A program made the translations under genes and the position numbers. Shown here in pieces: positions 36,808 to 40,230 of a stretch of DNA of 40,230 nt. Numbering within the stretch: the first letter of the stretch is position 1; the number at the start of each line of letters is the position of its first letter. The notes below the pieces were generated by a model, which was not told where the DNA came from, made no database searches, and saw only the letters and a program-made list of their open reading frames with translations. Source of the stretch: a virus (taxonomy: Duplodnaviria; Heunggongvirae; Uroviricota; Caudoviricetes); IMG/VR virus record IMGVR_UViG_2563366875_000002, positions 1 to 40,230 of that record. One strand, 5' to 3'.

Positions 36808-37146
36808 ATGCTTATTGGCTATGTACGTGTGTCAACAAATGACCAGAACACAGATCTACAACGTAATGCGCTGAACTGTGCAGGATGCGAGCTGATTTTT
36901 GAAGACAAGATAAGCGGTACAAAGTCCGAAAGGCCTGGACTGAAAAAACTGCTCAGGACATTATCGGCAGGTGATACGCTGGTGGTCTGGAAACTGGACC
37001 GACTGGGGCGCAGTATGCGGCATCTTGTCGTGCTGGTGGACGAAGATTTAGAGCATGAGTTAATTAATGGCGGTTTGTCCCACTATTGTGGTTGGTATCC
37101 CCATAGAACAGGGCAAGATATAGTTGTTCATCATGTTCACTCATAA
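36808..37146 (+). pseudogene. serine DNA invertase (Gin/Pin/Hin family), 3'-truncated
   Basis: N-terminal about 95 residues match the Gin family from memory (MLIGYVRVSTNDQNTDLQRNAL...TLVVWKLDRLGRSM); similarity is lost after about nt 37100; ORF ends at 112 aa versus about 190 aa expected; C-terminal DNA-binding domain absent. Confidence 0.8.
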
Positions 37147-37546
37147 GCAGAACTTCGGTGCTTGGCGTTATATTGAACCTTCTGAGGGATTCTGAGGATG
37201 AGTGGAATGTCGCGTTCTGATTCATCAGTAAGTAGGGAAAGATAGACTTTATGCGTCATTGACGGTGAAAGCGGCTATACATAGAAACTACCGACCAGCA
37301 TCAGCCTGAAAATATAGGCAGATAGAAAAAGTGGTCCGCACTTGCAACTAATGTTAAACCGTTTGTAGATATTGTGCTTCGGGTACAATTCTGTCCTATC
37401 GTTGCACTTAGCTAACTACTCTATATTTAATGCATTGTAATAAAGATATAAAAGTTGTAGTGTTGAGGGTCCAATTGCACATAAGAGTGCAAATTTGAGT
37501 TTGGCCGTAGGCTAATGATGAGAGTATAAGTTGGATTGGGTGCACT

Positions 37547-38644
37547 ATGAAGAAAAAAATAGCAGATCTACTAGCCGTTAAAACAAATATATTCGAAGTG
37601 TTCATTGTTGCGGTATTAATTGCCTTGGGCGTAAATATACTGTCATCAGGCGTTGTTGGTTATTTTAACTTGTCATTTTTGAAAATGATTGTTGTTGGTG
37701 CGCTACTAATAATTTTAGGTGCCACAATCTTTCTGCGTAACGCCTATCCTATGAATAATGGGAAATATGATTTTGAGGGGGTTGTGTGTTTAGACAATGA
37801 AAAAAAAGAGTTGATATCAATTGAAGGCTACGATTTTTCCGAAGAGGTTAGCCGTTACCTAAAAGGATTATGCGCGGAAAATAAGGCTATTCATAAATCA
37901 TGGACTGAGGGGCCAATTGGTTATGCTTTTGATTTTAAAGGGAAGGGGATAAATAGCAAAAAAATGAAAGCAAATGCACTATTTATTGAGGCGATTGAGT
38001 ATTATGTTTTAAGAAAACTTGCTCTTCATTTAAGTAGCTATTTTAATGATGATGAATCTTTTTCCGATGATTATTTGGTTAAACTAGATAGGAAAAGTAT
38101 TCCTGATGTTCTTATGGGGAATAGATTTATTGATACTTTTTCTAGAGCTATGGATGAACGTGAGCAATTTATGGATTATAGTTCTTTACCATCTATAGGT
38201 AAAGTTGTATATGCATATGGCAATGGAGGCGCAATTTTTGACCATTTTGAAATAGTTCTTCCCAAAAGTAGTTCGCTCACAAGAGAGAGCGACTCTAGTA
38301 TAAGTATTGTTACTAAAAGATTTAAGATTAATTATCGCCCTGTGTTCGAGGGATTCGGGGCTAATCTACCAATGAAATTTGGAAATCTTTATTTGGGTAG
38401 AGAGTTTAATTCATTTTCAACTTATTCAGTAGGTTTGGTAGTTACAGTGGATTTTAATGCCAAGTCTTTATTAACAACTAAGGGATGGGAATATTATTGG
38501 TGGCTTGATTCGTTTTTGGGAGAATTGGAACAATCATTTTCTAAAAAAATGTTTTTATCTAAAATATCTTGGGAGCAAAATGCAGCAATGTTTCTTATGC
38601 TTGAAAATAAGAGTAAAATGCAGCACAAGAGAGAGAATTTTTAG
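37547..38644 (+). CDS. hypothetical membrane-anchored protein (2 N-terminal TM helices plus ~290 aa soluble domain)
   Basis: 365 aa ORF in a very AT-rich block beyond the invertase breakpoint; two hydrophobic helices in residues about 15-65; no recognised motif. Confidence 0.6.
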   Translation: MKKKIADLLAVKTNIFEVFIVAVLIALGVNILSSGVVGYFNLSFLKMIVVGALLIILGATIFLRNAYPMNNGKYDFEGVVCLDNEKKELISIEGYDFSEEVSRYLKGLCAENKAIHKSWTEGPIGYAFDFKGKGINSKKMKANALFIEAIEYYVLRKLALHLSSYFNDDESFSDDYLVKLDRKSIPDVLMGNRFIDTFSRAMDEREQFMDYSSLPSIGKVVYAYGNGGAIFDHFEIVLPKSSSLTRESDSSISIVTKRFKINYRPVFEGFGANLPMKFGNLYLGREFNSFSTYSVGLVVTVDFNAKSLLTTKGWEYYWWLDSFLGELEQSFSKKMFLSKISWEQNAAMFLMLENKSKMQHKRENF

Positions 38645-39588
38645 ACAAATAAAAGCAGTCTAAATATCTACATACAGGAAAATGTTCGCATCTGTCTAAT
38701 GGTGAACAATAGTGGCTGTAAAGGCTGTAATTTGGGTTCGCTATGTGCTGCATGCATCGGTTGGGCTCACTGCTTATAACAGACATTAATTTTATGACAG
38801 AAAGACATTCATGCTAGTTGGAATATGCATAAAACTTCCTCTACACTGTGTTTGTATACAGTATTATTTTACTGTGCAAATAAGCAGCATTATTGTTTTC
38901 TCTGTTCAAGTAAAAAGAAATGGATACACTCACAAAGATTTTGATGGTGGCACGATAAGTGTCTTCGTTTTTATGAGAGCAGTTGTTGTGGCTTCATCAC
39001 TAGTACTTAGCATCAAGACTGATTTCTTGCTGTTGGTTCAAGTACTTTATCCCATAAAAGCCCACATCTGTGGGCTTTCAAGTCACTAGGGCACCGCGGC
39101 TCCTTTGCGTATCTTTTTTTGTATCCTCACCGTCTGGTCGGTGTCCTGCTTTGGCTGCTAACTTGCTGTTTTTGTTGGCATTATCCTTACGCCACCCAAT
39201 CATGATTGGTGGGCTGGCGGGAGTTGAAACCGCAGGCACGTCGTATGCAAGAACGTGCTGCGGTTGGCTGGTGAACTTCCAATAGTGCGAGTATTGAATG
39301 ATTTCCAGCTGTTATAGATTTTACGTATTTTTTGTATGAGAGGATTTGCATCTCCTCCCACCGATCCTCCATGACTTTACTCCACTGTCTATAGGGCTGC
39401 TGTGTGCTAGAAACGGACATTTTGGTCAACTGAGGGCATGGAAACTTGTTCAATAAATAACGTATAATCAATTGAAAATAAAATGAAATAATTGTAATAT
39501 CAAAATTCAAAGCCCGTAGTGAGTATGATTATCTATTCTTAATTTCAACCTCTTAATTCTAAATAAGTTAGACAAATCGGAATGGCAG

Positions 39589-40230
39589 ATGAAAATTAAG
39601 TTAACACCAATCTGGTTATGGATAAAACAATATCAACATCCCCTTAGAGTATTGGGGGGGATTTTTTTCGGGGCCGCTTTGATAGCAGCTTTTTTTTGGA
39701 TATCAGGATTTGATATAGAACCTATCGCATTCGCTCTGGGAATGCTTAGTTCATTGTTCTTAGCCAGCCCATCGGTAGCAGAATATTTTTTACCAGAACG
39801 TAAACCTGTCAGAGATATGACATATGAGGAAATCTTAAATTTCATACCCAAAACTGAACCATCTCAAGATTGGCATGGGATTTCAAGGGAATGGGCTAGC
39901 GAACGATTCCTTAAAGAAGACCCACGTCTTCGTTTTCGAGCCAAGTTCATTGATGAAGGAATTCAATGTGAAAATTTTATAGAAGATTGGGCTAACAATC
40001 ATCCAGATCCCAGAGCAACTGGATATTGGTATGAGCTTTATTACGACGGAGCATTCCTAGACAGGTTTTTATTGGTATCTGTGGATGGCGGTAGAGCGGA
40101 TATTCCTCCACCAAAATTACAAACTAAAGAAATTAGCTTACTCAATTATCATGTTGCGAAAATACATGACACCTCTGGCACGTTAGATGAGTATATTAAA
40201 CGATCTGGTTTAACTATTGCAAAAACATAA
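39589..40230 (+). CDS. hypothetical membrane-anchored protein (2 N-terminal TM helices plus ~140 aa soluble domain)
   Basis: 213 aa ORF, AT-rich; hydrophobic helices in residues about 20-65; no recognised motif; stop TAA at window end. Confidence 0.55.
   Translation: MKIKLTPIWLWIKQYQHPLRVLGGIFFGAALIAAFFWISGFDIEPIAFALGMLSSLFLASPSVAEYFLPERKPVRDMTYEEILNFIPKTEPSQDWHGISREWASERFLKEDPRLRFRAKFIDEGIQCENFIEDWANNHPDPRATGYWYELYYDGAFLDRFLLVSVDGGRADIPPPKLQTKEISLLNYHVAKIHDTSGTLDEYIKRSGLTIAKT

Follow-up and report, generated by a model that had tools for sequence, protein, structure and literature searches.

Two intact, rare, and unrelated genes, ORF365 and ORF213, occupy the attR-proximal accessory slot of an Escherichia coli prophage integrated at thrW, where they constitute independently acquired single-gene modules. 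We regard it as about an even chance (probability of roughly 0.5) that the two are independent single-gene defence or exclusion genes, a candidate role suggested by the position of the slot, its RAZR-like occupant in sister prophages, the mobility and rarity of both genes, the contexts of their homologs, a link of ORF213 to the PDC-S50 profile, and the predicted topology. Should either gene protect against phage, it would represent a new single-gene defence family. All coordinates refer to the window, the whole 40,230-nt stretch of DNA that was analyzed.

The prophage, which combines an HK97-type head with a Mu-type tail, has its attL at the tRNA-Thr(CGU) gene thrW (1369-1444, plus strand; ARAGORN), adjoined by the integrase in the H1 annotation. 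The 3' 48 nt of thrW (1399-1446) recur exactly some 1.2 kb beyond the end of the window (L001 16765-16812, about window-equivalent 41464-41511), and this copy represents attR. Because this att repeat encloses both ORF365 and ORF213, the two genes lie inside the prophage in the attR-adjacent slot, in agreement with the accessory cargo at a prophage end that a sequence-only reading of the window had proposed. The tail genes include an invertible tail-fibre segment (34769-36746) delimited by 20-nt inverted repeats (34769-34788 and 36727-36746; 95% complementary); alignment of the window to H2-H6 breaks at 36727, and H2 annotates the segment in the reverse orientation. This segment is the usual substrate of the serine invertase Pin. 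In sister prophages with a full-length pin, the same slot is filled by a zinc-ribbon+DUF4145 (RAZR-like) gene, followed by dinI and int. RAZR is a validated defence protein whose HEPN RNase domain corresponds to DUF4145 (PMC13017515). The slot examined here shares its position, right after pin and before dinI/att, with the RAZR-like slot and with the pin-mcrA slot of e14, and different single genes occupy this place in otherwise similar prophages, as they do here. In e14, the slot after pin encodes the McrA restriction enzyme. In contrast to both, the genes present here are of unannotated families, the invertase was truncated along the way, and the locus is a multi-layer mosaic with no clean gene swap.

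The truncation of the invertase is evident at both the protein and DNA levels. The remnant, pin' (36808-37043, plus strand; Pfam Resolvase, RefSeq, DNA homology), retains only the N-terminal catalytic part; residues 15-91 of its open reading frame, which was delimited by program at 36772-37146 (plus strand) and continues past pin' into unrelated sequence, match positions 2-88 of the 145-position Resolvase profile (E 3.5e-26), so that a complete catalytic domain is absent. A Pfam scan found no HTH_7 match for the C-terminal helix-turn-helix, in the place of which lies an antisense SRAP fragment, and RefSeq lists pin' as a pseudogene "missing C-terminus." The sequence-only reading had noted an abrupt end of invertase similarity near 37100; the end is indeed abrupt, but DNA homology to the full-length pin of a sister prophage (L004, annotated as frameshifted there) places it at 37043. 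Its view that cargo had replaced the 3' half of the invertase gave way to a deletion junction that joins pin' to an SRAP pseudogene fragment in inverted orientation (blastn, tblastn). This frameshifted fragment of SRAP/YedK, an SOS-response-associated peptidase (37059-37271, minus strand), covers about residues 5-75 of 222 at the N-terminus; it is 70-77% identical to annotated SRAP genes (blastn, 71 E. coli genomes), and its tblastn match is split over two frames with internal stops. The sequence beyond the invertase break is very AT-rich, as described earlier, with a GC content of 0.32-0.37 at 37501-39000 and 0.37 at 39501-40000 compared with 0.52-0.60 in the tail genes. The AT-rich spacers, previously taken as ORF-poor, were not empty, containing, besides the SRAP fragment, a dinI promoter relic, an ssrA relic, and a dispersed repeat. 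The dinI promoter relic (38822-38887, minus strand; blastn against sequence upstream of dinI in L003 and L004) carries a LexA box, CTGTgtttgtatACAG, at 38845-38860, and is an orphan promoter, with no dinI gene found after it. The ssrA site relic (39056-39233, minus strand) comprises the last 28 nt of tmRNA (39206-39233) and 150 nt of downstream flank, with 83-87% identity to the ssrA 3' end and flank (blastn, E. coli genomes; mapped on L058). The dispersed repeat (39222-39421), matched in 5423 of 5426 E. coli genomes at a median of 4 places and bearing a weak, sub-threshold CssrB hairpin match, spans the joint of the pin'-ORF365 module and the ORF213 module. An Rfam scan of 36500-40230 gave sub-threshold matches only, and a search of the region for promoter signals returned none that was significant. 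The locus is therefore a mosaic of pieces rather than one unit, in the order pin', SRAP/YedK fragment, ORF365 unit, dinI promoter, ssrA relic, dispersed repeat, and ORF213. Repeated illegitimate recombination may have left this wreckage in the slot, into which two intact modules would have been acquired independently. Read in this way, the locus records the turnover of a prophage cargo slot by illegitimate joins that wreck their neighbours (pin, SRAP, dinI) instead of by clean swaps.

Both proteins display two N-terminal transmembrane (TM) helices followed by a soluble domain, an architecture already suggested by the sequence-only reading and borne out by Kyte-Doolittle and AlphaFold analyses. 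The hydrophobic segments (scores of 1.8-2.5 across both proteins) span residues 15-33 and 45-63 of ORF365 and residues 21-39 and 46-64 of ORF213, and the AlphaFold models depict a helical hairpin and then an alpha/beta domain (pLDDT 81.7 and 92.6, respectively). Positive-inside N-termini and short neutral or acidic loops predict an N-in/C-in orientation, with the bulk of each protein in the cytoplasm and a periplasmic loop of just 5-7 residues. Each protein is thus predicted to be a self-contained inner-membrane two-helix hairpin with a conserved cytoplasmic domain.

ORF365 (37547-38644, plus strand; 365 aa, intact), with a predicted cytoplasmic alpha/beta domain of roughly 295 aa, is preceded by a conserved 5' leader (37420-37546, plus strand) identified by blastn against Serratia marcescens. 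The unit common to the window and S. marcescens (37420-38635) is 80% identical over 1216 nt to L013/L014, in which its flanks are not conserved. The family comprises 933 clusters at 50% identity, almost all of them of full length (about 370 aa), distributed over Proteobacteria, Bacteroidota, Bacillota, Verrucomicrobiota, Planctomycetota, and Archaea, and Asn30 in TM1 is invariant in the family alignment, as are Glu111, Asn112, and Arg193. No meaningful family match was obtained in Pfam, NCBIfam, or PHROG, no PADLOC-DB v2 family was matched at E <= 1, and no structural match was found in the PDB, a START/Bet v 1 helix-grip fold being a tentative candidate for the soluble domain. A family scan of all 34 aligned members yielded noise on the hydrophobic hairpin only, and the longer members had no recognisable additional domains. 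DUF3137 (PF11335), the UniRef label on two homologs, was rejected, being absent from the matches of the 34 members at E <= 1. Members of the family sometimes adjoin Gabija, SoFic, or AbiC genes and also occur at prophage ends and in islands: the loci include a prophage remnant beside putAbiC, an integrase island, and a lone islet, and the 149 ORFs within 3.5 kb of 24 homologs include GajA (two; E 2e-203), SoFic (two), WYL (two), NsnB (two), MTase_II (two), and ResIII (two), along with transposases. A family of more than 900 clusters in both prokaryotic domains has thus gone unrecorded in Pfam, NCBIfam, PHROG annotation, and PADLOC, and its size, together with a confidently predicted domain that lacks a PDB relative, makes ORF365 a cheap and well-defined target for a phage panel.

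ORF213 (39589-40230, plus strand; 213 aa, intact, with its stop codon at the window end) has a predicted cytoplasmic beta-rich domain of roughly 145 aa, and it likewise returned no family match at a meaningful level in Pfam, NCBIfam, or PHROG. The family numbers about 300 clusters, and its invariant residues include Asp111, Arg115, and Asp166. Elsewhere, it occurs in what look like bona fide integron cassettes. One homolog (L055) adjoins an integron integrase (TIGR02249, 428 bits; cutoff 265) and another (L057) an IntI fragment; canonical attC folds begin at the stop codon of homologs, with L055, L056, and L057 folding canonically and R''/R' boxes present in L009 and L054. These attC calls come from direct folding of sites picked by eye, a script based on R''/R' complementarity and folding being neither sensitive nor specific. 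In E. coli, GTTAGAC, an integron R'-type core (GTTRRRY), lies at 39567-39573 (plus strand), 15 nt upstream of the ORF213 ATG, and at the corresponding position of homologs GTTAGAT or GTTATG immediately follows a folded attC site; GTTRRRY is expected by chance at about 4% per 40 nt, and close relatives do not count as independent. This motif is possibly the relic of a cassette boundary. On the 3' side, the E. coli gene has no folding attC; what remains at the stop codon is CATAAtAAG, and in the 92 nt downstream R'' does not pair with R'; IntI was not found in the window or in L001. The E. coli copy looks like a cassette that escaped into a prophage. Other homologs reside on small mobilizable plasmids, in an ssrA satellite, and in a prophage, the last two each adjoining the integrase of the element. 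The domain links three gene pools that tend to be investigated apart, namely small mobilizable plasmids, prophage-end cargo, and the cassettes of chromosomal integrons. Genes lying upstream and downstream of the homologs were not homologous to one another and included no conserved partner; a convergent 252-aa gene accompanies ORF213 in Escherichia-type loci only, and this and a 517-aa neighbour were also scanned against Pfam, NCBIfam, PHROG, and PADLOC. A candidate link to DUF7946/7947 was rejected, the protein translationally coupled to the Marinomonas homolog having no similarity to ORF213.

The beta-rich core of ORF213 (residues 92-183) matched positions 184-272 of the PADLOC profile PDC-S50 (E 6e-4), and the same part of the profile was matched by 41 of 42 family members (best E 2.6e-8). 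Because only this part, 89 of 387 profile positions, is covered, the match indicates a shared domain rather than membership. The likeness to PDC-S50, and to PHROG 29016, resides in this core, and ORF213 has a 2TM hairpin where PDC-S50 has flanking regions. PDC systems themselves are candidates, not validated defence systems (PMC11514479). A strong PDC-S50 match (E 2.7e-72) was present among the neighbours of an ORF213 homolog, and the ORF213 profile matched none of all 97 neighbours (hmmsearch, phmmer, hhalign). No papers mention PDC-S50, WP_001542677, WP_001542678, or WP_001542679. We tentatively propose a joint reading, which we hold to be possible but rather less than likely, in which ORF365 would found a new single-protein immune family of bacteria and archaea, built of a membrane hairpin and an attached cytoplasmic domain for which no structural relative is detectable, while the ORF213 domain would be a portable phage-sensing module, borne on a 2TM effector in integron cassettes and prophages, embedded in PDC-S50 proteins, and free-standing on small plasmids.

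The two genes had been described as one block, and a single AT-rich acquisition of a two-component system (toxin/immunity or sensor/effector) would account for their adjacency, common strand, and shared layout of two TM helices plus a soluble domain in the six genomes with this arrangement. However, this explanation is largely refuted and now highly improbable. The proteins are unrelated (hhalign probability 0.2%), and each gene travels separately: among 5426 complete E. coli genomes, ORF365 was present in 12 and ORF213 in 7. Since the two occurred together in only 6 of the 13 genomes carrying either, the proposed pairing, which had been made to depend on co-occurrence, does not hold. ORF365 occupies three distinct chromosomal sites and follows two different tail modules, the sites including prophage ends adjoining prfC and torT that carry pin' and ORF365 without ORF213; ORF213 resides at the ends of two different thrW prophages, one of them lambda-like and without ORF365. 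The module limits also differ, the pin'-ORF365 module ending at 39326-39333 and the ORF213 module starting at 39139, about 945 nt of relic DNA separates the genes, and no ORF365 homolog lay beside an ORF213 homolog in any locus inspected outside Escherichia. The pseudogene fragments and relics on all sides and the lack of a significant promoter signal would also fit decaying junk, with ORFs intact by chance or on their way to becoming pseudogenes. This is improbable, because the conservation of each family across phyla marks both as real genes: neither ORF is truncated, hundreds of homologs align with them over the whole length and share many invariant residues, their E. coli copies are 99.6-100% identical between strains at different loci, and the ORF365 leader is conserved with Serratia.

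A part in the life cycle of the phage itself, as holin-like proteins or as membrane proteins of lysis timing, injection, or assembly, could be imagined for small two-TM proteins encoded in a prophage, the more so as a diverged ORF213 relative is located near lysis-like genes in one IMG/VR contig. Nevertheless, neither was found in any of 50,697 sequenced phage genomes, and among 2.9 million IMG/VR contigs ORF365 was found in 4 and ORF213 in 3, at contig ends; sister prophages do without both genes, homologs inhabit integrons, plasmids, archaea, and non-phage islets, and the prophage encodes its own holin, endolysin, and spanin elsewhere than at the attR end (H1 annotation), making such a part very unlikely. 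More weight attaches to accessory membrane proteins with a non-defence or selfish role (envelope conversion, stress tolerance, addiction/toxin modules), which we consider possible, if on the unlikely side. In Shigella phages of this type, genes for O-antigen modification occupy the slot adjoining attP, integron cassettes and small plasmids carry functions of many kinds, a YoeB/YefM toxin-antitoxin pair shares an array with an ORF213 homolog, and many ORF365 homologs have housekeeping neighbours. Conversely, surface modification is hard to square with a cytoplasmic bulk and a 5-7 residue periplasmic loop, no conserved partner antitoxin was detected, and the PDC-S50 link and defence-gene neighbours point elsewhere.

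Under the preferred reading of two stand-alone anti-phage genes that benefit the lysogen, the cytoplasmic domain of each protein would recognise an infection cue, and the hairpin, with its invariant polar or small residues, might then oligomerise and compromise the membrane (abortive infection) or, alternatively, block the passage of the phage genome at the inner membrane (exclusion). For these candidates, either role, exclusion or abortive infection, is plausible; the sensor-plus-membrane-effector mechanism itself is a more doubtful proposition. TM helices are present in about a third of the integron defence cassettes that have been validated by experiment (10.1101/2024.07.02.601719). Like these phage-resistance cassettes, or BRiCs, among which are the membrane proteins Deva and BrcWGS21 (10.1101/2024.07.02.601719), ORF213 homologs are small, single-gene, and TM-containing, a likeness of general description, whereas E. 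coli ORF213 lies outside any integron and lacks a folding attC. The N-terminal two-helix hairpin and small C-terminal domain also recall the CBASS effectors Cap15, Saf-2TM, and S-2TMbeta, but the likeness is limited to the hydrophobic hairpin: Pfam Saf_2TM weakly matched 1 of 34 ORF365-family members (E 1e-3), no CD-NTase or other signal generator was found in the window, L001, or any homolog context inspected, and no conserved partner gene appeared anywhere among those contexts. Superinfection-exclusion proteins encoded by phages and prophages, such as P22 SieA/SieB, T4 Imm, and HK97 gp15, are similarly small inner-membrane proteins that act alone against incoming phage. ORF365 and ORF213 have no sequence relation to them (PADLOC and PHROG negative), and, unusually for phage-specific exclusion, their families extend to integrons, plasmids, and archaea.

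Our analysis placed the DNA as a segment of an E. coli chromosome, with tRNA-Thr(CGU) thrW at 1369-1444. Annotation of the near-identical genome RX24 runs from proBA and thrW through an integrase, CPS-53-like early genes and genes for lysis, an HK97-type head and a Mu-type contractile tail to an invertible tail-fibre segment, and on to pin' (the truncated serine invertase gene), ORF365 (37547-38644, plus strand; 365 aa) and ORF213 (39589-40230, plus strand; 213 aa). After ORF213, RX24 carries a convergent 252-aa hypothetical gene and a truncated LysR gene adjoining paoDCBA. The 3' 48 nt of thrW (1399-1446) are repeated exactly at 16765-16812 of the E. 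coli locus L001, about 1.2 kb past the window end and between the 252-aa gene and the LysR fragment. This exact repeat puts the ORF365/ORF213 region within an element bounded by att sites, at the attR-proximal end. The sequence-only reading had described an AT-rich cargo block encoding two membrane-anchored proteins, and its basic observations were borne out: GC content beyond pin' is 0.32-0.37 versus 0.52-0.60 in the tail genes, both ORFs are intact, and each begins with two hydrophobic segments, modeled by AlphaFold as a helical hairpin followed by an alpha/beta domain (pLDDT 81.7 for ORF365 and 92.6 for ORF213). The cargo does sit at a prophage end, but it is neither a single block nor a gene pair.

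The prophage end is instead a mosaic. Homology of pin' to the full-length pin of a sister prophage (frameshifted there by annotation) stops at 37043; of the 145 positions in the Pfam Resolvase profile it matches 2-88, and a Pfam scan found no HTH in it. Directly past the breakpoint lies a frameshifted N-terminal fragment of a SRAP/YedK (SOS-response-associated peptidase) gene (37059-37271, minus strand), and the junction is a deletion fusing two gene stumps. The unit common to ORF365 and its Serratia homolog (37420-38635) consists of the gene and a 127-nt leader, nothing more. Downstream, a dinI-promoter relic (38822-38887, minus strand) retains a perfect LexA box (CTGTgtttgtatACAG, 38845-38860) and an ATG with only about 12 codons after it; this orphan promoter faces the minus strand, antisense to the ORF365 3' end about 180 nt away, and could yield an SOS-inducible antisense transcript. 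An ssrA copy (39056-39233, minus strand; 83-87% identity), comprising the last 28 nt of the gene (39206-39233) and 150 nt of its chromosomal downstream flank, looks like a remnant left by an ancestor that had integrated at ssrA, and the same remnant occurs in the dusA-integrated sister prophage (L004 7456-7731). Overlapping it, a dispersed repeat (39222-39421) turned up in 5423 of the 5426 E. coli genomes with a median of 4 copies, for example in the ykgJ-ecpE intergenic region, and flanks a 517-aa HNH-like cargo gene on both sides at another ORF213-bearing locus (L005). Cargo exchange may use this repeat as a recombination substrate; a hairpin within it (39224-39262) gave a sub-threshold Rfam alignment to the Shigella sRNA CssrB at its 3' hairpin.

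Cross-genome comparison resolved two modules: module A (pin', SRAP fragment, ORF365, relics) ends at 39326-39333, and module B (ORF213 and the 252-aa gene) starts at 39139. The 252-aa gene, just past the window end (L001 15604-16362, minus strand), encodes one N-terminal TM segment (27-45), returned no family match when searched, and lies 72 nt from the convergent ORF213, with a GC hairpin in the spacer. At E. coli-type loci (L001, L005, L024) it always accompanies ORF213; elsewhere it does not. Among complete E. coli genomes (n=5426), ORF365 occurs in 12, ORF213 in 7, and both in 6. Without ORF213, module A was found at a prophage end adjoining prfC, followed by an intact dinI-like gene, and also beside torT, with another baseplate module ahead of it; without ORF365, module B lies between the 517-aa HNH-like gene and the vat island, where a lambda-like prophage in thrW has its attR end. 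The two families are unrelated (hhalign probability 0.2%), and no conserved neighbour of ORF213 homologs emerged across the loci inspected. The view of the genes as a pair thus failed by the refuting condition that the sequence-only reading had itself set, a lack of co-occurrence: they are together in 6 genomes only, each is also found alone, and their families are unrelated. That they form a two-gene system is accordingly very improbable.

The ORF213 family, comprising 139 to about 295 clusters, is uncharacterised. Its members are unusually conserved, sharing 50-75% identity among Proteus, Vibrio, Aeromonas, Marinomonas, Desulfobacter and the planctomycete Scalindua, with common motifs including FLKEDPRLRFR and WAN.HPDP.A.GYW..L.YDG...DR.ILV.VDG, because many of them are integron cassettes. 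At L055, the homolog is the third ORF downstream of a divergent integron integrase (TIGR02249, 428 bits; cutoff 265), and at L057 it directly follows an IntI fragment. In L055, L056 and L057, the stop codon lies inside a CATAAC box that pairs, 70-100 nt further on, with a GTTA(T/G/C) box to give a classical attC fold; attC boxes are also present at L009 and L054, and the ORFs next after these cassette-type homologs are unrelated cassettes. Other homologs lie within an ssrA satellite in Proteus (integrase to primase interval), in a two-gene islet in Aeromonas, and adjoining a prophage integrase in Marinomonas, where a DUF7946+DUF7947 protein (L012 7132-8001) overlaps the homolog's start by one base (stop and start both at 8001), suggesting translational coupling in that genome only. 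In the E. coli gene, GTTAGAC persists 15 nt upstream of the ATG and CATAAtAAG at the stop codon, but the sequence beyond showed no attC fold when folded, so that cassette ancestry is likely, not proven. This integron-to-prophage link is a concrete, testable result.

The soluble domain of ORF213 is a separable module. Almost all family members (41 of 42) match positions 184-272 of the 387-position profile of PDC-S50, a PADLOC phage-defence candidate (best E 2.6e-8), and plasmids of 4.7-5.1 kb in Enterobacter, Klebsiella and Serratia, most of them predicted mobilizable, carry a TM-less 163-aa homolog (hhalign 99.1%) as their main cargo. One of 97 ORFs neighbouring ORF213 homologs (L005-L057) also matches PDC-S50 (E 2.7e-72); none of the 97 matched the ORF213 profile.

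The ORF365 family is likewise uncharacterised, very large and pan-prokaryotic. A word-indexed search recovered 47 clusters, and an exhaustive profile search 933 clusters at 50% identity (613 below E 1e-30), nearly all 350-400 aa and matched end to end, with invariant positions including Asn30 (TM1), E111, N112, W119, E148, E151, R182, N192, R193 and R205. A scan of one genome per species located homologs in Alpha-, Beta- and Gammaproteobacteria, Bacteroidota, Bacillota, Verrucomicrobiota, Planctomycetota and Desulfobulbus, and, within Archaea, in Thorarchaeota, Methanobrevibacter and Prometheoarchaeum. The family had no match in Pfam, NCBIfam, PHROG or PADLOC, and its model resembled no PDB structure, with only faint START-like Foldseek matches (probability <= 0.16). 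A DUF3137 label carried by two members in UniRef was not reproduced when the family was scanned. The settings of its members are typical of mobile accessory DNA: in Serratia a lone islet, in Citrobacter a degraded Mu-type prophage with putAbiC after it, in Pseudomonas the edge of an integrase island, and in IMG/VR contig ends. Flanks that look like attC by eye occur in Neptuniibacter and Hyunsoonleella, and Giesbergeria has an IntI-like fragment. Around 24 homologs, the 149 ORFs lying up to 3.5 kb away included Gabija GajA twice (E 2e-203), two each of SoFic, WYL, NsnB, PDC-S04, type II methylase and ResIII, transposases and many housekeeping genes; this uncontrolled neighbour survey suggests an association with defence islands.

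A defence role is our best guess for both ORF365 and ORF213, at a probability of roughly 0.5. The position after pin carries mcrA in e14, and gtr conversion genes lie next to attP in Shigella phages of this prophage type. The same slot in sister prophages encodes a 231-aa protein that combines a zinc ribbon (CxxC...CxxC) with DUF4145, ahead of dinI and the integrase; in the sister prophage at dusA (L004 6686-7381) it comes after the full-length pin gene (annotated as frameshifted). RAZR, a validated abortive-infection RNase (PMC13017515), has this same architecture. Integron cassettes of unknown function are rich in phage-resistance genes, and a third of these have TM helices (10.1101/2024.07.02.601719). 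Each gene is rare, almost identical from strain to strain, present at several loci and absent from the 50,697 sequenced phage genomes searched, a pattern more in keeping with host-benefit cargo than with phage life-cycle genes. A life-cycle role is quite unlikely. Simple decay of the region, with its gene stumps and promoter and ssrA relics around two intact ORFs, appears only slightly less unlikely. Another accessory or addiction role is a real but lesser contender. The charge distribution of both proteins predicts N-in/C-in topology with an outside loop of only 5-7 residues; under the defence reading, the predicted cytoplasmic placement of the conserved domains would fit a sensor domain coupled to a membrane-perturbing or entry-blocking hairpin, a scheme we offer tentatively. 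Prophage hotspots are already known to carry single membrane-anchored cargo genes, so the finding is not categorically new.

Elsewhere in the prophage, the invertible tail-fibre segment (34769-36746) is bounded by 20-nt inverted repeats (34769-34788 and 36727-36746) and is oriented oppositely in RX24 and FDAARGOS_1337, with pin truncated in all; alignments to the remaining paoD-site genomes break at the same inverted repeat. Either another Pin-family invertase in the cell catalyzes the inversion in trans, or the inversion is older than the pin truncation. A 170-aa AT-rich ORF (28881-29393; GC about 0.33) with a signal-peptide-like N-terminus, between the tape-measure and DNA-circularization genes, looks like a tail-module moron; it is missing from the otherwise near-identical RX24 prophage, where these two genes are 60 nt apart. 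A second AT-rich cargo island (about 11500-14600; GC 0.29-0.38), between the Q antiterminator and the lysis genes, is likely a defence moron, its RX24 counterparts being annotated as a DNA cytosine methyltransferase, a MAE_28990-family HEPN-like nuclease and a DUF262 protein.
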